A stretch of DNA of 64,000 nt from Deltaproteobacteria bacterium (GTDB lineage: Bacteria; Desulfobacterota; RBG-13-43-22). Both the position numbers and the translations under genes were made by a program. The notes under the pieces were generated by a model. That model did not search any database. It worked only from the letters and a program-made list of their open reading frames with translations, and was not told the DNA's origin. The stretch covers positions 3,944 through 67,943 of the forward strand of contig JACQYK010000175.1 in the NCBI GenBank assembly GCA_016208255.1, read 5' to 3'. This document shows positions 3,297-39,521 of the stretch, piece by piece (within the stretch, counting starts at the first letter, position 1; each line of letters opens with the position of its first letter).

Positions 3297-4712
3297 TTGA
3301 CGGATATTGTCAATAAACTCTGGGGATTTTGTCACACTCTACGGCATGACGGCGTGGATTACGGCGATTACATCGAACAGCTTACCTATCTGCTTTTTCT
3401 TAAAATGGCCGACGAAAAAGGGATCACCATCCCTAAGGGTTGTACCTGGGAGGCCTTGAAGAAAGAGTCCGGCCCGGCCCTGATCGATCTCTATTCGGAG
3501 ATACTGCGCAAATTGCGTGATGAAAAGGGCCTGCTCGGCGACATCTTTACCCAGTCAGTGCCCCGCTTTAATAATCCCGTAAATCTAAAACGTCTCATTA
3601 CCATGATCGATGAAGAAGAATGGTCGGCCCTTGATGTCGATGTCAAAGGGGCGGCCTTTGAAGGGCTATTGGAAAAAGCGGCCAGCGAAGGGAAAAAGGG
3701 CGCCGGGCAATACTTCGCCCCCAGGGTCCTGATCAAGTCCATTGTCCGGGTCATGAGGCCCGATCCCCGGACAAACGCGGAATTTACCATCTGCGATCCG
3801 GCCTGCGGCACCGGAGGCTTTCTGATGTGCGCCTATGAGTGGCTGATGGAGATCACCGGCGGGGCCATCGAACGGGATATTGCCAAACGGGTAAAGACCA
3901 AAACCTATTATGGACAGGAACTGGTGCCCCGCCCCAGACGTCTTTCCCTGATGAATCTCTTTCTCCACGGTCTGGAACCCCATATTTATTTGGGCGATGC
4001 CATCTATGAACCCTACCGGGGAAAACTGCATAGTTGCGTCCTGACCAATCCACCCTTCGGCACCAAGGGGGCCAATCAAGCCCCGGAGCGGGATGACTTT
4101 ACCATTGCCACCAGCAACAAACAGCTCAATTTCGTCCAGCACGTCATGAATATCCTCAAGGAAGGAGGCCGGGCGGCCATTGTCCTGCCTGACAACTGTC
4201 TCTTTGAAGACAAAGCGGCCGAGGTCTTTGAAATCCTTATGCAGGACTGCAACCTCCACACGATCCTCCGCCTGCCCAGAGGGACCTTCACCCCCTACAG
4301 CCCCGGCGTGAAAGCCAATGTCATCTTTTTCCAGAAAGGCATGAAAACCGAACAGGTCTGGATATTCGATGCCCGCTCCAATGTGCCGGGCATCACCAAG
4401 AAGGAACGCCCCCTAGGACCCGAACATTTTACCGAATTCGAGGCCGCCTACGGCAAAGACCCCAACGGGCAAAGCAAAAGAAAGGATACCGGCGAACAGG
4501 GCCGGTTCAGACGATTTCATATCAAAGACATCAAAGACCGCTCCTACAAGCTCGACATCACCTGGCTCAGAGACGAATCCCTCGAAGACGCCAATGACTT
4601 GCCCGAGCCGCAGGATTTAGCCGCTGAGGCGATTACGGAATTGGAAGCGGTGGTAGATAGTCTGAGGGATATTGTAGAGTTGCTGGAGAAGGAAGAAGGT
4701 GTGGAGGAGTGA
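3297..4712 (+). CDS. hsdM: Type I R-M N6-adenine DNA methyltransferase (HsdM)
   Basis: 471 aa with a TTG start 12 nt after hsdR. HsdM N-domain (LWGFCHTLRHDG...YLLFLKM), motif I DPACGTGGF and motif IV LTNPPFG. Confidence 0.95.
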   Translation: MTDIVNKLWGFCHTLRHDGVDYGDYIEQLTYLLFLKMADEKGITIPKGCTWEALKKESGPALIDLYSEILRKLRDEKGLLGDIFTQSVPRFNNPVNLKRLITMIDEEEWSALDVDVKGAAFEGLLEKAASEGKKGAGQYFAPRVLIKSIVRVMRPDPRTNAEFTICDPACGTGGFLMCAYEWLMEITGGAIERDIAKRVKTKTYYGQELVPRPRRLSLMNLFLHGLEPHIYLGDAIYEPYRGKLHSCVLTNPPFGTKGANQAPERDDFTIATSNKQLNFVQHVMNILKEGGRAAIVLPDNCLFEDKAAEVFEILMQDCNLHTILRLPRGTFTPYSPGVKANVIFFQKGMKTEQVWIFDARSNVPGITKKERPLGPEHFTEFEAAYGKDPNGQSKRKDTGEQGRFRRFHIKDIKDRSYKLDITWLRDESLEDANDLPEPQDLAAEAITELEAVVDSLRDIVELLEKEEGVEE

Positions 4713-6142
4713 GAGAAGAGTTGCCACGAGGATGGAGTATGGCAGAATTAGAGAGCGTTGCCGAACTTGTCAGCGGGGCTGGTTTTCCTTTGAACCTCCA
4801 AAGCCAGACAGGATTTACTTTCCCGTTTTTTAAAGTTGGAAATTTGAAGGATGTAGCTTCAGGAAAACCTTTAGTCTCTTCCGAACACACGATTTCTGAA
4901 AGAGCCGCCTACTCGCTCCGGGCTAGGATTATCCCAGAGGAAGCCACTGTGTTTGCAAAAATCGGCATGGCTATAAGCTTAAACCGAAGACGTCTGATTG
5001 GAAGGCCTGCTTGTATTGATAACAACATGATGGCTGCTATACCAAACGAGGCTATACATCCCAGTTATCTCTTACGCTTTCTTGAGACGGTTGATTTTAT
5101 GCCTTTAACTCAAGCTACAACAGTTCCGAGTCTTCGGAAGGGCAATATAGCAAAGATTCTGGTTCCACTGGCACCTTTGGAGGAACAGCGCCGTATCGTG
5201 GTAAAGCTGGAAAAACTTTTGGAGAAAGTCGAATCCAGCCGGACACGTCTTGAAAAGATTCCCGTCGTCCTCAAACGCTTTCGCCAATCCGTCCTCGCCG
5301 CCGCCTGCTCTGGCCGTCTCACTGCCGATTGGAGGGAGCAATCAAAACAATCAATCGAACATATCATCAGAGATAACAATACTGCCCTGCCTGAAATTCC
5401 CGAAAGTTGGCGATGGGTAAAACTTCCGGATACAGGGGAAATGAGTCGTGGAAAGTCGCGGCATAGACCAAGAAATGAGCCTTCATTATTTGATGGACAA
5501 TACCCTTTCATCCAAACTGGTGATATTGCCCAGTCAGGGGGTAGAATTACCTCCCATAAGCAAACTTATAATGAGGCAGGTCTTGCCCAGAGCCGTCTTT
5601 GGCCAGCTAACACCATTTGCATCACGATCGCTGCGAACATTGCTGAGTCGGCCATTTTGACCTATCCAGCATGTTTTCCCGACAGCATTGTCGGGATCAT
5701 TGCAAATTCTGTGGTCTGTTTGGCAGAGTATGTTGAATTTTTCATCCGGGTAGCGAAAACAGATCTATCGACATTTGCCCCTGCGACGGCCCAGAAGAAC
5801 ATCAATATTGCCATTTTAAATGAGGTGGCTGTCCCTCTCCCCCCTCTAATAGAACAACATGAAATCGTCCGCCGTGTGGAAGAACTCTTTGCCCTTGCCG
5901 ACCAGATCGAAGCCCGTTACCAGAAAGCAAAAGCCCATGTGGACAAACTCACCCAATCCATCCTGGCCAAAGCCTTCCGTGGCGAACTCGTCCCCCAAGA
6001 CCCAAACGATACACCTGCGATAATTTTGTTGAGTGAAATTGATATTGGCAAGAAATACTTTAAAAACACCCTTCTCAAAAGATCAAAGATGAGAGAAAAA
6101 CATAAAATAAAAACTAGAGAGGGAACACATGGAGGCGAATGA
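4709..6142 (+). CDS. hsdS: Type I R-M specificity subunit (HsdS)
   Basis: 477 aa with a GTG start overlapping the hsdM stop (GTGA). Two variable target-recognition regions are separated by conserved repeats (LAPLEEQRRIVVKLEKLL and LPPLIEQHEIVRRVEELFALADQIE). Confidence 0.9.
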   Translation: MREELPRGWSMAELESVAELVSGAGFPLNLQSQTGFTFPFFKVGNLKDVASGKPLVSSEHTISERAAYSLRARIIPEEATVFAKIGMAISLNRRRLIGRPACIDNNMMAAIPNEAIHPSYLLRFLETVDFMPLTQATTVPSLRKGNIAKILVPLAPLEEQRRIVVKLEKLLEKVESSRTRLEKIPVVLKRFRQSVLAAACSGRLTADWREQSKQSIEHIIRDNNTALPEIPESWRWVKLPDTGEMSRGKSRHRPRNEPSLFDGQYPFIQTGDIAQSGGRITSHKQTYNEAGLAQSRLWPANTICITIAANIAESAILTYPACFPDSIVGIIANSVVCLAEYVEFFIRVAKTDLSTFAPATAQKNINIAILNEVAVPLPPLIEQHEIVRRVEELFALADQIEARYQKAKAHVDKLTQSILAKAFRGELVPQDPNDTPAIILLSEIDIGKKYFKNTLLKRSKMREKHKIKTREGTHGGE

Positions 6143-7016
6143 TAATCTTGAAATTAAATTCAGGCTGGAGGGTCCGATTTTCCAAACTGGTATTCCTTTA
6201 TTAGAGACAATCGTAGCCTTACAAGAATTTCATTTTATTATTGATAAAGCATACTCTGCGAATTTTAATATCGCAAAATTAACAAAGAAAGAGAGACAAC
6301 ATTATAGCATTATTGCACAGAATTTTCAGAAAGGATCATTTGAGGCCGATTTGATGTTCGTCATCGCATCTGGCACTCAATTGCTTCTCCCAAGCATTCA
6401 AGCATTTGGCCCGAAAGAACTGTGGGATCTCGTTAAAGCATCGTTCTCCTTTTTGAAAGCAATTATTACCGCAAGGAATTCAGAGACCGAACCCACTGTC
6501 AATATTGAAGGACACGGCAACCATGTCTATATTATGAACGATAATGTGATTAAAATAAGCCAACATGTTTATAATGCTGCAGACTTGTCAGAACCGCATT
6601 ATAAGAAGCTTACTTCTGTTATTGAAAAAAATAAAATTGATTCTATCACTGGAATGGATTCGTCTGGAGAAGGGATTGAACTGACCGAGAACGAGAAAAA
6701 ACTATTTAACCCTAAGGTTACGGTGGAAAAAGAAGTTCTTAAAGTTCGATGCAGTGTCTTTCGATTCGACAAAGAAGCAAACATCGGTAAATTGCGGGTT
6801 TCTCCGGGAGAACCAGTTCCACCGGGCGAATATAATTTCAAACCTATTGCATCGGGAGATTATAGAAAATTTATAGTTGCGATGATGCATTCCTCGGTAA
6901 CATTAAACATATTGAAAGAAATTGAAGTGCATACCTCAGGCTTAAAACGTATCTCATCTTTACATGTGGTCTCATTTGAAGATTTTCAGCAAGAATCCCT
7001 ATTTTCATTGACATGA
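6129..7016 (+). CDS. Hypothetical protein, 295 aa, coupled to hsdS
   Basis: The ATG at 6129 lies inside the last 14 nt of hsdS, with a purine-rich AGAGAGGG upstream. It is a long uninterrupted ORF that is visibly AT-rich relative to hsdR/hsdM. I recognise no motif. Confidence 0.6.
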   Translation: MEANDNLEIKFRLEGPIFQTGIPLLETIVALQEFHFIIDKAYSANFNIAKLTKKERQHYSIIAQNFQKGSFEADLMFVIASGTQLLLPSIQAFGPKELWDLVKASFSFLKAIITARNSETEPTVNIEGHGNHVYIMNDNVIKISQHVYNAADLSEPHYKKLTSVIEKNKIDSITGMDSSGEGIELTENEKKLFNPKVTVEKEVLKVRCSVFRFDKEANIGKLRVSPGEPVPPGEYNFKPIASGDYRKFIVAMMHSSVTLNILKEIEVHTSGLKRISSLHVVSFEDFQQESLFSLT

Positions 7017-7070
7017 TTATTAAAGGCGGACTATAGGCAGCCCAGAATTTCAGCCGAAAGGAAAAAGGGA

Positions 7071-7099
7071 TAGATATAGTATACTCCGTGTGCTATAAT
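7071..7099 (+). promoter_or_regulatory. Candidate sigma70 promoter/operator of the abiE operon
   Basis: TATAAT at 7094-7099 with a weak -35 (TAGATA, 7071-7076) at 17-nt spacing. The perfect palindrome AGTATACT lies between them. AbiEi proteins are known autorepressors. Confidence 0.35.
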
Positions 7100-7137
7100 T
7101 CCATCCAGATTGGAACTACTGCGCAAAGGATGTACCA

Positions 7138-7947
7138 ATGAAGTCCGTTTCGGGGTTAGGAAAAGAGTCGAGAAAACAATTAACGAAGGTACTACGCGGA
7201 ACGACCGGAACGATATCGGTCGCCCAAGCTGCGAGTATTCTTAATCTCCCTTCGATCAAAGCCGCAAAACTTCTTTGGGGATGGAATGAACAGGGTTGGG
7301 TCTCCCGCGTTATGCGAGGAGTATACGTTCCTGTTCCACTCAATGCTGAATCCCCTGACGTGTCCCTCGAAGACCCTTGGATTATTGCCGAAAAATTATT
7401 CTCACCTTGTTATATCGGAGGGTGGAGCGCCGCTGAACATTGGGGTCTTACCGAGCAAATTTTTCGGACAGTAGTTGTTTTGACAACTCGGAAACCAAGA
7501 AACCGCAGTCCTAAAATCAAGGGAACCGATTTTTTGTTGCGAACCATATCGCCTAAGGCTATGTTCGGCCTCAACCCGGTCTGGAGAGGACAGGTTAAGG
7601 TAGCTGTATCCGATCCGGCACGAACGATTGTTGATATGTTGGATAACCCTCAGCTCGGGGGAGGTATGCGTACAGTTGTCGATATCCTTCGGAACTACCT
7701 GAAGTCTGAGACCGAGGATTCTGCGCGTCTGATTGGATACGCCAAACGATTGGGCAATAGCGCTGTCTTTAAGCGCCTTGGTTTTCTCCTGGAATCTGTC
7801 GCACCGGAAGAGGCGGAAGCCATTAAAACCTGCCTTCTCAACATGAAAACAGGAAAAGTCAAGTTTGACCCAGACCTTCAATCCGAAAGATTGGTCACCC
7901 GATGGAAGTTGTGGGTTCCAAAGAATTGGAAGCAGGCTAAGAAATAG
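7138..7947 (+). CDS. abiEi: AbiEi-family antitoxin/transcriptional regulator (type IV TA)
   Basis: 269 aa. N-terminal wHTH-like segment (ISVAQAASILNLPSIKAAKLLWGWNEQGWVSRVMRGVY) and GGWSAAEHWGLTEQ, typical of the AbiEi_4 type. It sits directly upstream of a DUF1814 NTase. Confidence 0.85.
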   Translation: MKSVSGLGKESRKQLTKVLRGTTGTISVAQAASILNLPSIKAAKLLWGWNEQGWVSRVMRGVYVPVPLNAESPDVSLEDPWIIAEKLFSPCYIGGWSAAEHWGLTEQIFRTVVVLTTRKPRNRSPKIKGTDFLLRTISPKAMFGLNPVWRGQVKVAVSDPARTIVDMLDNPQLGGGMRTVVDILRNYLKSETEDSARLIGYAKRLGNSAVFKRLGFLLESVAPEEAEAIKTCLLNMKTGKVKFDPDLQSERLVTRWKLWVPKNWKQAKK

Positions 7948-7959
7948 AGGATATTTTCG

Positions 7960-9390
7960 TTGATCAGCCGTCAAGAAATAATGGATTTTTCGAGAGAGTT
8001 CGGACTTGCGCCGAATGTGATCGAAAAGGACTATGCCCTCGGATGGGTGCTTGCCGGAATTGCAAATACCGAAGGACTTGGTACTGTCTGGGTTTTTAAA
8101 GGCGGGACCGCTCTCAAGAAATGTTTCTTTGAAACCTATCGATTCTCGGAGGACCTGGATTTTACAGTCACTGAGGAAAAGTATCTGGACCCAGACTCTC
8201 TGACCGAGATATTTCGCAAGATTGGTGATTGGGTATACGAACAGGCAGGCCTTGAGATTCCTAGAGATACAATTCGCTTTGAAAGCTATACTACCCCACG
8301 GGGAAAAACCTCTGTTCAGGGACGCATCGGCTATCGAGGGCCCCTGAAGCCGGGCGGGGATCTGCCTCGTATAAGATTTGACCTAACCAAAGATGAATTG
8401 GTAGTTTTAAATCCGGAGATGAGAGAAGTACACCATCCTCATTCCGATTCACCGACTGATGGTATCCACGTTTTATCCTATTGTTTCGAAGAAGTTTTTG
8501 CCGAGAAGATTCGTGCCTTGGCTGAAAGGGAAAGGCCCCGCGACCTTTATGACGTGATCCATCTCTTCAGACATTCCAATGAAGCGGTGGATAGACCACT
8601 TTTGGTGAAAACGTTGGAGAAGAAGTGCGCATTTAAAGGAATACCTCTGCCTTCCTTTGACACCCTGGCCACCAGTCCTGAGTATAGTGAACTTAAATCG
8701 GAATGGCAAAACATGTTGGCCCATCAATTGCCGGTTTTGCCTCCCTTTGAACAATTTTGGAACGAGCTTCCCGACATGTTTAACTGGCTGTATGGGAAGG
8801 TAGAGAAGGTGGTTCAACCGGTGATTCCGTCCATTGGAATTCCCGGTGATGATCGATGGCGAGCGCCCACTATGGCAACGGCCTGGCACTCCAAAGTGCC
8901 GATTGAAGTCATTCGATATGCCGGGGCGAATCGTCTTTGTGTTGACTTGCAGTATCAAGGAAACAAGAGACTTATTGAGCCCTATTCTTTGCGTCGTTCC
9001 CGCGAAGGGAATTTGCTCCTGTACGCAGCAAAGCATATATCGGGAGAACCAAGAGCATACAGAGTGGATCGTATTGAAGGAGCCGCCGTAACCAATAAAC
9101 CCTTTACTCCTCGTTATACTATTGAATTCTCAGAATCTGGTTCCATTTCCGCACCACCCATTAGCCGAAATCCTGAAATTTATCGCCCAACTAAGACGAG
9201 AAGCCCCTTGACAATTGGTTTTGGAACTAAGCGGCTTGCTTCAGGGTATGGCCCAAAATATATTTTCGAATGTCCAATTTGCGAAAAGAAGTTTACCCAT
9301 AGATCATACGATGCATCACTGCGTCCTCATAAAGATAAGGACGGATATCCATGTGGAGGTCGGCTTGGGATCTACATTGATACGAAATGA
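7960..9390 (+). CDS. abiEii: AbiEii/DUF1814 nucleotidyltransferase toxin with a C-terminal WYL-like domain and Zn-ribbon
   Basis: 476 aa. N-terminus IEKDYALGWVL...FKGGTALKK...RFSEDLDF is the AbiEii hallmark. aa ~313-385 are WYL-like (RLIEPYSLRRSREGNLLLYAAKHISGEPRAYRVDRIEG). aa 434-470 read CPIC...H...CGG. The start may be TTG at 7960 or ATG at 7981. Confidence 0.85.
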   Translation: MISRQEIMDFSREFGLAPNVIEKDYALGWVLAGIANTEGLGTVWVFKGGTALKKCFFETYRFSEDLDFTVTEEKYLDPDSLTEIFRKIGDWVYEQAGLEIPRDTIRFESYTTPRGKTSVQGRIGYRGPLKPGGDLPRIRFDLTKDELVVLNPEMREVHHPHSDSPTDGIHVLSYCFEEVFAEKIRALAERERPRDLYDVIHLFRHSNEAVDRPLLVKTLEKKCAFKGIPLPSFDTLATSPEYSELKSEWQNMLAHQLPVLPPFEQFWNELPDMFNWLYGKVEKVVQPVIPSIGIPGDDRWRAPTMATAWHSKVPIEVIRYAGANRLCVDLQYQGNKRLIEPYSLRRSREGNLLLYAAKHISGEPRAYRVDRIEGAAVTNKPFTPRYTIEFSESGSISAPPISRNPEIYRPTKTRSPLTIGFGTKRLASGYGPKYIFECPICEKKFTHRSYDASLRPHKDKDGYPCGGRLGIYIDTK

Positions 9391-32613: not shown

Positions 32614-34856
<2,243 letters not shown>

Positions 34857-34910
34857 CAAACTGTGAAAGTGACGAATGACGAGTTAGGTCATCGTCTGAC
34901 TATTTAAGAG

Positions 34911-34950
34911 AAAAACCCCGGCGGTCGGATGACCACCGGGGTTTTGTTAT
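34911..34950 (+). terminator. Rho-independent terminator after ahcY
   Basis: AAAACCCCGGCGGT-cggatga-CCACCGGGGTTTT followed by GTTATTT. Confidence 0.7.
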
Positions 34951-34984
34951 TTAGTAATACTTTAGACGTATGAAAAGATTTTCT

Positions 34985-35146
34985 GACAGGATAACAGGAT
35001 TTACACGTTTATTACTCAGGCTCCGGTGATACTGAGCACCTTAGCTCCATCCCAGCGGAAGGAAGGGCCTTTCTCCGCAGGATGATTTGGTTTGTGCCTT
35101 TCTTCTGGAAAGGCACAAAAATCCAGGTAATCCGGTAAATCCTGTC
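34985..35146 (+). repeat. Family A element, copy A2
   Basis: GACAGGATAACAGGATTT ... AATCCGGTAAATCCTGTC, with the same internal hairpin modules as A1. Confidence 0.85.
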
Positions 35147-35261
35147 GGATAAAAGATTGGATGTTCAAAGAGCTAAATTGACACGTTATTTATTAGATTG
35201 AAAAAATGAGTGGCTGAATTCGATTTATGATCCCCACTGCTGCTTCAAAGTAAAATCTATT

Positions 35262-35432
35262 TCAACATGGCTCGGAGGCCGGAGAGCAGACCGTAAATCC
35301 TTCACCATACCAGGAATCTTTATAGTCTATAAGAGTTTGATTAAATAGATCTTTCTCCTGTTTATTATAAACGAACTCGATGCCTTGTAAATGCAAGATT
35401 TCATCTTCTTCTCTTGGTTCATCCAGAACCAT
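35262..35432 (-). CDS. Small ORF (56 aa) resembling the C-terminal half of HesB/IscA-like proteins; possibly a fragment
   Basis: My own translation, below the ORF-track cutoff: MVLDEPREEDEILHLQGIEFVYNKQEKDLFNQTLIDYKDSWYGEGFTVCSPASEPC. The LDE...G..FV......L....IDY....G.GF pattern is IscA/HesB-like. The upstream part is AT-rich and does not continue the fold. Confidence 0.3.
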   Translation of the reverse strand: MVLDEPREEDEILHLQGIEFVYNKQEKDLFNQTLIDYKDSWYGEGFTVCSPASEPC

Positions 35433-35617
35433 TGCCAATCTAAGGATAGAAATCAGGTGTTGAACAACTAAATTAAAATAATAATATCAAATAAATATGG
35501 TTGAATTATTTATGGTTGAATGATCAATATTAAAATTTCTTGGTAATTGAAAAGAAACTATTCAATATATTGTTGGGCTGCTTGCCAATACGATTTTGTT
35601 CACGGAGGATGAATTAA

Positions 35618-36184
35618 ATGAGTGAAATTGATAAAGACGAGATTGTTCGCCTGACAGAAGAATATGGAGGACAATGGGGCATCAACCACACACGTCGACT
35701 TTTGGAATTGATTTCAGTTATTGGTAAAGACCGGCAATATAATGCCGAAGTGATTTGGGTTGCAGCTCATTTGCATGATTGGGGAGGCTATCCCAAGTGG
35801 ATGCAAGCAGGCGTGGATCATGCATTACGATCCCGGCAAGTCGCTGAAGGGTTTCTGGTAGAAAGGAGTTTTGCTCCCGAACTCTTGACGCCAACCTTGG
35901 AGTGCATCGAATATCATCATGGCAGCGATCCAACCCGCCGGATAGAAACTATTCTGCTGAGCGATGCTGATGCGCTGGACTTCTTAGGAGTCGTTGGTGT
36001 GTTGCGTGATTTTTCAAAGAAGCCCAGTGATTTACGGAAAGCCTATGAAGTAGTGCAAAACCGAAAAGAGAAGCTGCGCCAGTCCATCTGCCTGGAGACA
36101 TCCAAGACAATCGCAGTGCAGCGATTGGAGAAGATGGAAAGACTGTTGGAAGCTTTTGAAGAAGAAACCTTTGGATACTTCTGA
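35618..36184 (+). CDS. HD-domain phosphohydrolase
   Basis: 188 aa. HLHDWGGY, EYHHGSDP and LSDADALDF form an H...HD...D arrangement. Confidence 0.85.
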   Translation: MSEIDKDEIVRLTEEYGGQWGINHTRRLLELISVIGKDRQYNAEVIWVAAHLHDWGGYPKWMQAGVDHALRSRQVAEGFLVERSFAPELLTPTLECIEYHHGSDPTRRIETILLSDADALDFLGVVGVLRDFSKKPSDLRKAYEVVQNRKEKLRQSICLETSKTIAVQRLEKMERLLEAFEEETFGYF

Positions 36185-36199
36185 GTAACAAGGTGGGCG

Positions 36200-36332
36200 G
36201 CAGCCCAACACAGCCTGCACCTGACTGGCGGGTACGTGCCGCGTTTTCAAGCATTTTCTTGGCTTCAGGCCTATACTGCTCCCAAGCGTTATCTCACCAA
36301 TCCCGCCAGCAGGTAACGCATACCGTTATAGC
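36200..36332 (+). other. attC-like imperfect palindrome downstream of the HD gene
   Basis: GCAGCCCAAC (36200-36209) is the inverse of GTTGGGCTGC (35572-35581). A 12-bp stem pairs 36220-36232 with 36302-36313, with one bulged base (A36224). The structure ends ...ACCGTTATAG (36326-36332). Confidence 0.4.
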
Positions 36333-36349
36333 AAAAGCGAAGAGGAATT

Positions 36350-36900
36350 ATGGATGTTAAACTGATTCCGGTGATTTCAATCATAATATCTGCTTTGGCA
36401 TTTGTCGTGTCCGCTTTGACGGCTTGGGTTTCTTTGTTTCATCGAGGCACGATTAGGATGACCCAACCCACAATATTCTTTTTCGGCCCCGACGGTCTTC
36501 TGATCCTCCGAAGATATTTCTGAGAACCTTGCTCTTTAGCACCTCGAAGAAAGGCCGCATTTTAGAAAACATGTTTGTCAGGCTTCAGAGAGGAGAGTCC
36601 GTGCAAAATTTCAACATCTGGGTATATGGTGATAAAGAAACTCTCGCACGGGGTAGCGGTCTGTTTGTAGGCAGAGAGGGAATAGCCTGCAATCACCACT
36701 TCTTGCTTCCCAAAGACGGCACCAAATATACTTTCCTGCCCGGCGAATATAGTCTGGAGCTCTTCGGCTCATTGCTTGGAGAAGGACGCGCCGTGCCTCT
36801 TTTCGCACAGAAGCTTTTTCTTTCGAAGGAATTCGCTGAAGAGATTAACAACGAGAAATCGGGTATGACGCTTGCTATGCCGCCCTGGCCCAGGATATGA
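36350..36900 (+). pseudogene. Membrane-anchored hypothetical protein split by a frameshift near 36490-36500
   Basis: A 57-aa ORF at 36350..36523 (MDVKLIPVIISIIISALAFVVSALTAW..., one TM helix) continues in another frame as ...SSDPPKIFLRTLLFSTSKKGRILENMF... (track ORF 36529..36900). Confidence 0.5.
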
Positions 36901-37101
36901 AAGGAGTCTGGCTAACCTTTGACTCTAAAGCCCATAAGACGATACAACGGGAGAAGGTTTCCTTTTTTCTGAAAAAGGGCATGCCTCCTTATTGGGCGGA
37001 GGCCTGATAAGATTGGTATGTTTAATGTTTGGTTTTTAATCTTGATTTCTTAATTTCCCCTGAATAGTATGTAAAAAAGTCATTTAACCAGGAGGTGGGT
37101 T

Positions 37102-37371
37102 ATGGATGCTAAACTGACGGTCAAGTCGGTAAAGGGATTTTGCGCGGCCGGATACCAGGTGGGGGATTTTTTTCAGGTCAAAGGCGGGTTGATGATTGAA
37201 GCGGGCAAACCGCAGGGGATTTGTATGTATGCTCTGCCGGCCCTTATTCCTTACCTGACTGCCTATTGCCGCGAAACCTCTCCGGATGATTGGATCAATC
37301 TGAAAAAAGAACTCCAATGCCCGGATAATACCAATACGGTTATTTTCGGATTGGAACGCGTAAAGGGTTAA
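37102..37371 (+). CDS. TIGR04076-family small Cys-containing protein
   Basis: 89 aa. C..G..VGD.F......... P.GIC..AL..L.P......... CPD pattern recalled for TIGR04076. Confidence 0.7.
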   Translation: MDAKLTVKSVKGFCAAGYQVGDFFQVKGGLMIEAGKPQGICMYALPALIPYLTAYCRETSPDDWINLKKELQCPDNTNTVIFGLERVKG

Positions 37372-37406
37372 TCTTGAATGAATCCTAAATAACCGGCACT
37401 TTTTTT

Positions 37407-37500
37407 CGTCATTCCCGAACGTCTTTATCGGGAATCCAGTTTTAAAAAAATGAGCAATCAAAATCCCTGGATTCCGGCTAAGAACTTGCCGGAATGACGG
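37407..37500. repeat. Family C paired hairpin repeat (CGTCATTCC...GGAATCCAG type)
   Basis: CGTCATTCCCGAacgtctttaTCGGGAATCCAG, ~35 nt, then CCTGGATTCCGGCtaagaacttGCCGGAATGACG. The two units are mutually inverted. Confidence 0.75.
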
Positions 37501-37568
37501 ATAAGGAAGCGCATTAGAAAATAACCATCGATAAAATTTTTATCGATGTACATTTAACATGCGATTTT

Positions 37569-39521
37569 TTGATCACTGAAAGGATGAATTCTGTGGAAAA
37601 TGAATATGGTTATGCTGGTAAAATTTTGAGAGTCAACCTGTCCACAGGACAGATCAGCACCATTCCCACAGCCCAATATGCCGACCGTTTTATCGGAGGT
37701 CGAGGCCTGGCCGCCAAAATCTATTGGGACCTGGTGCCGCCGGAAGCGGATGCTTTCGATCCCAGGAATTGTCTGATATTTGTCACCGGACCCCTGGCCG
37801 GCTTCGGCGGCCTGTCCGGATCACGCTGGCAGGTCTGCTCAAAATCACCGTCTGCCGATCCCCATACTTTCAGCTATTCCAATATGGGGGGACACTGGGG
37901 GGCCCAGCTCAAGTTCGCCGGATATGATGGATTGGTGGTAGAAGGGGCTGCCGATAAACCGGTCTTTATGGTGATCGAAAACGGTAAAGCGGAAATTAAA
38001 GATGCCTCTAATCTGTGGTTGAAAACAGCCCTGGAGGTTCGTCAAACCCTCAAAGAGGATTTGGGCCGGGAAGTACGGGTCCTGGCCACCGGGCCGGCCG
38101 GGGATAACCGGGTGGTCTTTGCCGGTCTCCTGGCCGACAATGACGCCAGTGGTTCCAGCGGATTCGGAGCGATCATGGGCTCAAAGAAGCTGAAGGCCAT
38201 TGTCGTTCATGGTGAACAGAGGGTCCGGGCCGCGGACCCGGAAAAACTAAAGGAACTGACCGACTATGTGCGGCAGCTTAAAAAATTGAAACCCGGAACT
38301 CTCGAAAAACTGATGCCGGAGGGCTCCGGGTTGAAAAGGGAGGCCTGTTTCGGTTGTATCGGGTCCTGCATCGGAAGGATGGTGTATCGGGCCGAGGACG
38401 GCACACGGGGAAAGGTCATGTGTCAATCGGGGATGTATTACGCCCGGGCGGCCTGGAAATATTATGGGAAACGGACGGAAGTCCCCTTCTTCGCCAACCG
38501 TATCGCTGACCGTTACGGATTTGACACGATGGTTGTGGATTCGATCATCACTCTACTTTTTAAAGGCCACAGGACCGGTATATTTACGGATGAAAACACC
38601 GGTCTGCCCCTGGCTCAAATCGGCAGCCTGGAATTCATGGAAGCTCTGGCTAAAAAAATTTCTTTTCGTGAAGGAATCGGGGATATCCTGGCCCAGGGAA
38701 CTACCCGGGCGGCGAAAATAATAGGGCAGGGGGCACCGGAGTTGATAGCCGACCAGATTTCTATTGCCGATCATGGTCCGGCTTATTGCCCCCGCATGTA
38801 TATCACCACCGGGATTTTTTATGCCACCGAACCCCGGCAGCCGATTCAAAACCTTCATGCTATCAGCCGTCCCACCCTCAAATGGGTGAGCTGGCTGGGG
38901 GGCAATCCCGATTCCCATATGACCACCGATCTGGTCCGCTGGATCGGAAAGAACTTTTGGGGTGGTGAAGAAGGGGCCGATTTTTCGACTTATGAAGGGA
39001 AAGCGCTGGCGGCCAAAAAAATCCAGGACCGGGAATATGCCAAGGAAAGCCTGATCCTTTGCGATTTCGCCTGGCCGATCACCGATGTGGATTGTTCAGA
39101 AGATCATAAAGGTGATCCTGCAGTGGAGAGTCGGCTTTACTCGGCGGTGACCGGCCGGGAAACCGACGAGGCCGGTTTGAATGAAATCGGAGAGCGGGTC
39201 TTTAACTTACAAAGGGCCATTTTGACCCGGGAAGGGCATGTTGGCCGGGATGCCGACCGGGTCCACGAAATGTTTTACACAGTGCCTTTAAAAGAGGCCT
39301 TCCTGAACCCCGAATGCCTGGTCCCCGGCCCGGGAGGTGAAACGATCAGCAAAAAAGGGGCTGTTTTCGACCGGGAGAAATTCGAGTCTATGAAAACGGA
39401 GTATTACCGGTTGCGGGGCTGGGATCCGGATACCGGACTACAGACCAGGGATAAACTTAATCAACTGGGGTTGGAGGATATCACCGGGGATCTGGCGGTA
39501 AGAAAAGTTTTGGCTGTTTAG
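37569..39521 (+). CDS. aor: Aldehyde:ferredoxin oxidoreductase family (tungstopterin enzyme)
   Basis: 650 aa. AOR N-domain GYAGKILRVNLSTGQIS...RFIGGRGLAAKIYWD and the 4Fe-4S motif CFGCIGSC (CxxCxxxC). The start is uncertain (TTG 37569 or ATG 37584). Confidence 0.9.
   Translation: MITERMNSVENEYGYAGKILRVNLSTGQISTIPTAQYADRFIGGRGLAAKIYWDLVPPEADAFDPRNCLIFVTGPLAGFGGLSGSRWQVCSKSPSADPHTFSYSNMGGHWGAQLKFAGYDGLVVEGAADKPVFMVIENGKAEIKDASNLWLKTALEVRQTLKEDLGREVRVLATGPAGDNRVVFAGLLADNDASGSSGFGAIMGSKKLKAIVVHGEQRVRAADPEKLKELTDYVRQLKKLKPGTLEKLMPEGSGLKREACFGCIGSCIGRMVYRAEDGTRGKVMCQSGMYYARAAWKYYGKRTEVPFFANRIADRYGFDTMVVDSIITLLFKGHRTGIFTDENTGLPLAQIGSLEFMEALAKKISFREGIGDILAQGTTRAAKIIGQGAPELIADQISIADHGPAYCPRMYITTGIFYATEPRQPIQNLHAISRPTLKWVSWLGGNPDSHMTTDLVRWIGKNFWGGEEGADFSTYEGKALAAKKIQDREYAKESLILCDFAWPITDVDCSEDHKGDPAVESRLYSAVTGRETDEAGLNEIGERVFNLQRAILTREGHVGRDADRVHEMFYTVPLKEAFLNPECLVPGPGGETISKKGAVFDREKFESMKTEYYRLRGWDPDTGLQTRDKLNQLGLEDITGDLAVRKVLAV

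Follow-up and report, generated by a model that had tools for sequence, protein, structure and literature searches.

The HD-domain gene that lies within an AT-rich patch of the window (the whole 64,000-nt stretch of DNA analysed here) is a genuine integron gene cassette with its own attC, situated at the attI of an integron that lacks an integrase. We estimate at about 0.9 the probability that the locus as a whole is a decayed integron platform that has lost its intI and consists of an attI followed by two cassettes, the first intact and the second dead. The source genome is a 6.3 Mb, 96%-complete metagenome-assembled genome (MAG). The original prediction had proposed a cassette and attC here from an inverted repeat and a bulged palindrome; the letters of the sequence alone are suggestive of this, not decisive, and the model has since been borne out by homology breakpoints that fall exactly at G↓TTGGGC (the arrow marking the crossover), and by membership of the hairpin in an attC family that has tandem arrays and strong covariation. 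The AT-richness of the patch was also correctly described (GC 0.32-0.49, versus 0.50-0.60 in the flanks). Dispersed repeats occur nearby, at 34945-35190 (>150 copies) and 37382-37527 (~15-25 matches).

The left boundary of the cassette was located by blastn, in which homology to three metagenome contigs (L079, L080 and L081) begins at window position 35572 in 3/3 cases. Each contig has the 3' end of a different attC just before that point, with ...ACC standing before GTTGGGCAAC, ...GTC before GTTGGGCTGC and ...GGC before GTTGGGCAGC, respectively; in L079, moreover, the HD gene has on either side a member of the 130-nt attC family to which the attC in the window belongs. As the breakpoints coincide at 35572 in three independent contigs, the cassette spans 35573-36325 on the forward strand (753 bp), running from TTGGGC... 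to the G of its attC. The composite core site GTTGGGC (35572-35578, forward strand; consensus GTTRRRY) is supported by both the blastn breakpoints and the point at which attI conservation ends, and these comparisons place the predicted crossover between G35572, the last base of attI, and T35573, the first base of the cassette. The same three contigs settle whether homologues of the HD gene occur as cassettes elsewhere, a question raised with the original prediction: they do.

The gene carried by the cassette is intact (35618-36184, forward strand, 188 aa), with an ATG at 35618, a GGAGG ribosome-binding site 8 nt upstream, and a stop codon at 36182-36184. Its product matches Pfam PF01966 at 33.5 bits (cut-off 22), contains in translation the motifs AAHLHDWGG, EYHHG and SDADALD (the H...HD...D metal-binding motif), and has matches in the PDB to 2pq7 and 3dto, both uncharacterised HD hydrolases; a PADLOC search with the protein gave no defence-family match. 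We regard the product as a plain HD-domain hydrolase, and predict it to be a phosphohydrolase. Among ~800 homologues the closest have 88-89% identity. On long contigs (L074, L075 and L077) the homologues, at 82-86% identity, were rejected as further cassettes; they are ordinary chromosomal genes, and DNA homology to the window is limited to the ORF.

Immediately upstream of the cassette, positions 35451-35574 (forward strand) contain an AT-rich element which we identify by homology as the probable attI of a decayed integron. It is a copy of a subtype that we term 'type B', and is itself an nhmmer match (C132:39394-39517 in contig coordinates, E = 6e-21). The element contains repeated GATATTGA-like boxes and an inverted repeat, (T)ATTGAA-N9-TTCAATA, and ends in ...GAAACTATTCAATATATTG↓TT. 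There are 8-10 copies in the source genome, and 1-3 copies in 15/20 other genomes of the family; its 21-nt end, GAAACTATTCAATAWATTGTT, occurs in 16/21 family genomes, while the reversed control gave 0 matches. In all copies conservation ends at GTT, and unrelated genes or cassettes follow. The bases after this GTT are enriched for RRRY, and the boundary heptamer GTTNNNN has an exact downstream reverse complement at 15/35 loci, while cross-locus controls give 11% (p = 1.7e-6); in a GTDB set, some of whose members are among these 35 loci, the figure is 21/42, again versus 11% (p = 7e-10). At no fewer than 10 loci, including C70 and C106 of the source genome, the complement of GTTNNNN serves as R'' in a bulged hairpin that has GTT at its end. 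The pair at C70 reads GTTAGAGC / GCTCTAAC, and the attC at that locus has a GCCGACGCC...GGCGCGGC core which we take to be aadA-like. An interpretation of the upstream element as itself an attC or ORF-less cassette was rejected, given that it has no R'' partner and no hairpin, and that its second GTT is not conserved.

Identification of the element as an attI was not immediate. A first test, which asked whether it is the attI used by the integrases of the genus, failed: in none of 21 family genomes does the element share a contig with an integrase above cut-off, and nhmmer did not find it near the intI genes of the other lineage in the genus. The identity was settled by extension of the conserved region upstream, into intI stubs and an intact IntI. 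Upstream conservation runs into a divergent gene starting MPMLPVPxPVLTRFDAILEKRAVAP..., which in L116 (a Desulfatiglandaceae MAG, JBGSUA010000103.1) is an intact IntI of 453 aa that directly and divergently adjoins the element and scores 384 bits against TIGR02249 (cut-off 265). Other copies are flanked by decayed stubs of the same intI N-terminus, of 30-180 codons. Comparison with the second IntI lineage of the genus points the same way, as its integrase-proximal sites end ...AAAACTTTAGAATAACTTG↓TT, with the core end AATAACTTG↓TT, at which the contigs break; 16/21 bases are identical between this site and the core of the attI element, and the last 11 nt are equal.

The window copy has a degenerate -35/-10-like pair directed toward the cassettes (TGATCA-N17-TAATTG), the counterpart of TTGACA/TTGAAA-N17-TATTGA/TATTAA/TATTAT in other copies. 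A consensus promoter scan of the window copy found no promoter; by comparison with the other copies, the window attI may nonetheless carry an outward promoter toward the cassettes. The -35/-10-like pair, with its constant 17-nt spacing, would equally suit an account in which the cassette and attC are real and the upstream element is not an attI, being instead a shared promoter/operator, for which the palindrome TATTGAA-N9-TTCAATA could be the operator, or an attG-like GTT target. The failure to find the element on a contig with an above-cut-off integrase in the 21 family genomes, or by nhmmer beside the other IntI lineage, is also in keeping with this account. We nevertheless consider it improbable. 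It does not explain why the element lies directly and divergently beside an intact IntI in L116, and beside stubs of that N-terminus elsewhere; why the genes that follow are unrelated in every copy, with divergence starting at the same G↓TT; why the bases past GTT, besides favouring RRRY, match the R'' of the first cassette; or why its last 11 nt are those of an integrase-proximal site in a sister lineage.

Taken as an attI, the element belongs to a family that is apparently undescribed and is conserved across several phyla. Relatives have it 1-8 times per genome. The full element (~125-175 nt conserved) is present in ~45 GTDB species, most of them Thermodesulfobacteriota, with others in Nitrospirota, Brocadiaceae and other Planctomycetota, and one Bacteroidota MAG; our literature search found no mention of its sequence. 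In the 'type B' subtype the upstream ~230 nt is the decayed 5' region of intI, and two relatives each have 3 such copies, with a different first cassette in every copy. In the window copy this decayed intI region is cut off at 35441, and a 5'-truncated gene fragment of the IscA/HesB family stands there instead (35262-35438, reverse strand, 58 codons). We describe this ORF as a fragment because its match to NCBIfam NF038090 is partial (positions 39-90 of 101) and, at 28 bits, under the cut-off; the match to PF01521 is weak. A 90%-identical copy of the IscA/HesB stretch occurs in one related genome (G015), between ahcY and the orthologous attI, in the order metK-ahcY-...-HesB-like-...-attI, and this genome is the sole sharer of the ahcY-HesB-attI neighbourhood. 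Its first cassette differs from that in the window, encoding a methyltransferase which is also found in the source genome, in the array beside the IntI fragment described below.

At the other end of the cassette, 18 nt past the HD stop codon and on the same strand, lies a 129-nt palindrome (36203-36331) that we assign to attC on the basis of a covariance model, a second genomic copy and a metagenomic family. Its length is within the range of about 57-141 nt known for attC sites. The R'' box, GCCCAAC (36203-36209, forward strand), fits RYYYAAC. It is followed by an L-box helix (36213-36216 with 36316-36319), an asymmetric 2-versus-1 loop (36217-36218 against 36315), and a main stem (36219-36232 with 36302-36314) that has an extra-helical A at 36224. 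Within this stem, the pairing of CCTG[A]CTGGCGGG at 36220-36232 with CCCGCCAGCAGG at 36302-36313 was originally predicted exactly as we find it, including the bulged base. The extra bases of both the bulge and the asymmetric loop are in the 5' arm of the attC (T and G or C on the bottom strand). The terminal R' box, GTTATAG (forward strand), was likewise correctly recognised, but is at 36325-36331 rather than 36326-36332, and thus 18 nt, not 17, before the next ATG. In the linear site this box is two RRRY positions off the consensus GTTRRRY, while the core rebuilt from the first bases of the cassette itself reads GTTGGGC and complements R'' perfectly, in a pairing that reaches 10 bp.

Folding of the bottom strand, which had been suggested as a check, did not support the structure: the DNA fold is no better than shuffles (z = -1.17), and the RNA fold is also not significant (z = -1.65). 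Our argument for the structure is based on covariation instead. A second genomic copy, at the end of contig C215, is ~75% identical to the window attC, with R'' GCCCAAC, a perfect R' (GTTGGGC), and the stem CCCG[A]CGTGTGGG / CCCACACGCGGG, so that the two differ by 4 compensatory stem pairs and have the bulged A at the same place. A covariance model (R1) built from these two copies had no further match in the genome; searches of 20 family genomes were likewise empty, by which we rejected the notion of a lineage repeat. Metagenome contigs scanned with a 17-nt R''-L'' motif, GCCCAACAYRGCSTGCA, yielded at least 120 stretches, and R1 searches of the 80 loci listed from among these gave at least 132 further matches, most of them full-length. 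On the 80 listed fragments the family forms tandem, same-strand arrays of up to 9 per contig, at a spacing of ~0.7-1.4 kb. Across 134 rows of an alignment fitted to the model structure (A4), which inflates pairing somewhat, 93.7% of cells are paired, versus 78.5% in shuffles and 28-45% in slid controls. Compensatory changes occur in 18/24 attC pairs, 400 cells have double changes, and 0/500 shuffles reach the observed values; in the inner helix, which is outside the search pattern, 8/8 pairs covary. In 119-122 of the 134 rows the AAC-GTT pairs form. Conservation is lowest for the four outer R-box pairs (88% for that helix), which also covary less than those further in; this would be expected were the distal R' bases supplied by the adjoining cassette. 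These comparisons identify the 129-nt palindrome, to judge from its predicted structure, as a member of a large attC family of ~130 nt. The 80 fragments were also searched for a window-type attI or IntI, and none was found, which indicates that the family occurs independently of this integrase lineage. The site is also the top-ranked one in the window for a crude attC scanner, which looks for RYYYAAC...GTT and scores the pairing of the arms; genome-wide this scanner is noisy, and serves as a lead only.

The position of the palindrome after a stop codon, together with its RNA fold of -53 kcal/mol, might be thought to favour an RNA element, such as a terminator, a 3'-UTR structure or a small RNA; equally, a short peptide ORF (36193-36360) might account for conservation, as the two genomic copies share a frame of 55-62 codons in which 6/10 central codon differences are synonymous (read by eye). 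We find either interpretation highly improbable. The palindrome has no T-tract and no Rfam match (a scan of 34000-38000 at E <= 10 found nothing at either the hairpin or the attI), its family occurs in tandem arrays between unrelated ORFs, and the weaker covariation of the outer pairs of its RYYYAAC/GTT cores is that expected for hybrid R' boxes. Further, two different cassettes have their homology breakpoints exactly where such sites read G↓TT.

The inverted repeat from which the original prediction set out is real, and its two arms are placed as first reported: GTTGGGCTGC at 35572-35581, 36 nt 5' of the HD ATG, and GCAGCCCAAC at 36200-36209, 15 nt 3' of the stop. Its extent was underestimated, as the perfect complementarity covers 11 nt rather than 10 (TGTTGGGCTGC, 35571-35581, with GCAGCCCAACA, 36200-36210). 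The observation that the cassette begins with a sequence, TTGGGCTGC, able to pair with the R'' side of the same cassette, GCAGCCCAA, also holds, and is the rule for the junction of a circular cassette. With 15 occurrences in 6.3 Mb of genome, the number expected by chance, the 10-mer is not a dispersed repeat; derivation of the inverted repeat from such a family, named at the outset as grounds for rejecting the cassette, is thereby dismissed. A pair of 10-mers confined to the 60 nt flanking each gene end is expected 0.0025 times. A chance inverted repeat beside an unrelated REP/MITE-type hairpin, which might be entertained in a neighbourhood rich in dispersed repeats and where an 11-mer inverted repeat is expected ~0.74 times anywhere in 2.5 kb, has next to no probability and is refuted by the breakpoints with which the repeat coincides, by recurrence of the same rule at dozens of loci, by the tandem attC arrays and their covariation, and by the rarity of the hairpin, which unlike the local MITE-like repeats is present just twice in the source genome and is absent from 20 related ones.

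Beyond the attC lie the remains of a second cassette (36326-36864, forward strand), a pseudogene that begins TTATAGC and was delimited by blastn and its intact homologues. Its ORF is split into 36350-36523 and 36529-36900, with a frameshift near 36490-36500, relative to a widespread hypothetical protein of 205 aa at 78-89% identity. Homology runs from 36336 to 36864 and then stops, such that the cassette is 3'-truncated at ~36864, with its last ~33 codons and its attC missing. Intact cassettes of this type (L140, L142 and L144) start with GTTATAGC and end in the R'' (G/A)CTATAAC followed by a short attC, and in these homologues the stop codon is inside R''. This accounts for the weak R' that had been counted against the attC model from the outset: GTTATAG is, as read from these homologues, best understood as the G of the HD attC joined to TTATAGC, the conserved 5' end of the next cassette, whose intact homologues end in the complementary GCTATAAC. 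In 36865-37100, where a second attC was sought, there are no more than some short hairpins of terminator type and one weak candidate, GGCTAAC...GTTTCCT, and neither R1 nor the crude scanner found another attC in 35000-37600; that the locus has no second attC is explained by the truncation evident from homology.

The locus has no intI, and is not a complete integron. The original prediction had noted this absence, and indeed TIGR02249 has no match on the window's contig; a search of the 96%-complete MAG with the same model found no intact integrase. All that the genome retains is a 205-aa, N-terminally truncated IntI fragment on contig C102 (247-249 bits, cut-off 265), 89% identical to the L116 integrase. 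Other attC sites are also present in the genome, among them the C215 copy (C215:15473-15601) and short sites on C70, C330, C163 and C106, so that the further attC and integrase sequences which were to be looked for do exist. As this fragment is the only integrase sequence left, the HD cassette is probably immobile at present, unless an integrase acts in trans. The description of the locus as a remnant was right insofar as it is an integron remnant, but it is not an anonymous one, since the AT-rich stretch upstream, which went unrecognised, is the attI/promoter region.

We suggest the following course of events. An integron integrase would have recombined the attC of a circular HD cassette with the attI at G↓TT, and so inserted the cassette. 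As a result the cassette would start with TTGGGCTGC, which pairs with the R'' side of the same cassette, and the former first cassette (TTATAGC...) would come to lie behind the final G of the HD attC. The intI gene, normally divergent beside attI, has been deleted from this locus, and the IscA/HesB fragment marks the left junction of that deletion. If the attI element defines an undescribed integron lineage, spread over Thermodesulfobacteriota, Nitrospirota, anammox Planctomycetota and a Bacteroidota MAG, with integrases that bear a ~140-aa N-terminal extension and integrase-less docking sites that are still loaded in trans, then the arrangement would amount to a distributed integron, in which many landing pads are served by an integrase encoded elsewhere. 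We offer this as a tentative proposal, which is rather doubtful in its entirety.

The cassette is of a type ordinary for integrons. It is the conserved, multi-copy and mostly integrase-less attI family, a side result, that deserves follow-up. Most integrons have no known attI, and there is no way to search for one (Cury et al., 2016, PMC4889954). A long attI element that is recognisable by sequence in ~45 species from several anaerobic phyla can therefore serve as a marker for integron platforms in MAGs, including those that lack an integrase, and could be of use in testing whether orphan attI sites are loaded in trans, and in cloning cognate IntI/attI/attC triplets from uncultured anaerobes. 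Every part of the locus itself can now be labelled, from the attI and the loss of intI to the HD-hydrolase cassette, its attC and the second cassette, which is dead; and it demonstrates that an isolated single attC, of the kind discarded by genome surveys, can be a real and fully delimited cassette. The HD family offers the same gene both inside and outside a cassette (chromosomal homologues are up to 89% identical), which bears on how cassettes form.

Among known systems, the cassette most resembles those of sedentary chromosomal integrons, such as that of Vibrio, whose VCR attC sites are about 120-130 nt long. It shares with these a promoterless ORF followed by an imperfect palindrome of ~130 nt, an R'' of the form RYYYAAC, extra-helical bases on the R''-L'' arm, a hybrid R' composed of G and the TTRRRY of the next cassette, and a cassette 5' end that is complementary to its own R''. 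The attC family also forms tandem arrays, and its members are similar over their whole length. The window differs in having a single member of the family, behind an attI without an integrase. This absence of a neighbouring intI is a likeness to CALINs, which are clusters of attC without an integron-integrase, defined as having >=2 attC (PMC4889954; IntegronFinder 2.0, PMC9024848), and loss of intI from a complete integron is one proposed origin of a CALIN (PMC4889954). Isolated single attC sites have been set aside as possible false positives or degraded cassettes (PMC4889954). The 'CALIN-like' label attached to the locus in the original prediction does not hold in the strict sense, as fewer than two attC survive here; unlike a CALIN, the window has a single validated attC together with a surviving attI, which IntegronFinder cannot search for.

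The attG sites, for their part, are short and loosely defined targets. They have been described as non-canonical genomic sites of cassette integration (bioRxiv 10.1101/2022.09.11.507474), and the likeness is that cassettes lie in chromosomes away from a functional integron. As the site in the window is long, conserved and integrase-associated, we class it as an attI and not as an attG. In class 1 integrons, attI1 has two integrase-binding direct repeats (DR1 and DR2) and a simple site ending GTTRRRY, with the promoter Pc nearby. The element described here resembles attI1 in lying between a divergent intI and the first cassette, in having short repeated boxes upstream, in a crossover at G↓TT, and in a predicted promoter directed into the cassettes. 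It differs in sharing no sequence similarity with attI1, in being longer (~125-175 nt conserved) and very AT-rich, and in being conserved across phyla, in several copies per genome, most of which stand without an intI.

The AT-rich attI element of about 125 nt that adjoins the HD-domain cassette in the window is present at further sites in the source genome, where it stands without an integrase and is followed each time by different cassettes. The copy at C70:23121-23900 precedes a GNAT cassette, that at C330:13469-15060 NUDIX and GNAT cassettes, that at C163:21046-22900 an amidase cassette, and that at C106:5313-6100 a cassette for an uncharacterised protein; membrane and unknown proteins follow the copy that begins at C4:28482, and a ParE/RelE-type toxin-antitoxin pair follows the one that begins at C7:3965 (minus strand), while a further integrase-less copy lies at C117:5041-5119. 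Several of these copies are followed by short hairpins of the classic attC type that carry a bulged A. A second copy of the 130-nt attC lies on another contig of this genome, within the stretch C215:13762-15647 (L018), 3' of a DUF2804 gene that is itself 3'-truncated (Pfam positions 7-260 of 339). Upstream of that gene are an amidohydrolase, also truncated, and part of the MITE-like repeat described below for 34945-35190; the contig ends 46 nt past the attC.

The same genome holds a degenerate integron at C102:14600-24000 (L017, approximately 4400-9240), in which an N-terminally truncated IntI of 205 aa, scoring 249 bits on the integron integrase profile TIGR02249 (cut-off 265 bits), stands opposite a divergently oriented series of small genes on the minus strand, among them genes for a methyltransferase, for toxin-antitoxin pairs of VapBC-like and RelE-like type and for a SnoaL-like protein. 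In a related genome, G015, the methyltransferase cassette occupies the first position after the orthologous attI.

In type B attI copies (e.g. L134, L115, L099 and L126), a decayed intI region lies upstream of the attI core and extends over about 230 nt. On the cassette strand, this region carries a conserved predicted promoter (TTTGCAA-N17-TATAAT) and a conserved ORF of 54 codons (MAQIHISKDPLNKTPVSGKIQIF...NQVLNN), which terminates at GTTGAACAACTAA, the left edge of attI. The copy in the window is without this upstream promoter and ORF region.

Dispersed repeats flank the locus in the window. The first (34945-35190) is a MITE- or REP-like element of about 240 nt, with well over 150 genome copies at 67-91% identity, which includes the palindrome TTTGTGCCTTTC/GAAAGGCACAAA together with CAGGTAATCCGGTAAATCCTGTC motifs and encloses a 50-codon ORF (35016-35168, minus strand). 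The second (37382-37527), with some 15-25 genome matches, forms a hairpin of about 95 nt, each arm 33 nt long (CGTCATTCCCGAAC...GGAATGACG), and is situated between the TIGR04076 gene and an aldehyde:ferredoxin oxidoreductase gene. Separately, an 18-nt direct repeat (36348-36365 and 37100-37117; 17/18 identical; TTATGGATG[T/C]TAAACTGA) has one copy over the start codon of the second, dead cassette (MDVKL...) and the other over that of the TIGR04076-family gene (MDAKL...). On our own estimate such a pair is expected by chance about 0.003 times per 2.5 kb, and it may mark a rearrangement behind the truncation of the array.

The sister lineage has intact intI genes on G014:C14, G011:C47, G010:C166 and G020:C210 in related genomes (L052, L054, L057 and L056, respectively). 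As each of these contigs ends 0.1-2 kb from the intI start, and G014:C14 stops precisely at the crossover point (...GAATAACTTG), we suggest that heterogeneity of the cassette arrays beside these genes has broken the assemblies. The attI-linked IntI lineage (L116:2713-4071, with homologous stubs in L087, L092, L132 and L104) is extended at the N-terminus by about 140 aa (MPMLPVP..LTRFDAILEKRAVAP.QRADYKKWLRYFLDFCAKYPVP...), which precede the part of the protein that TIGR02249 covers, residues 144-452.
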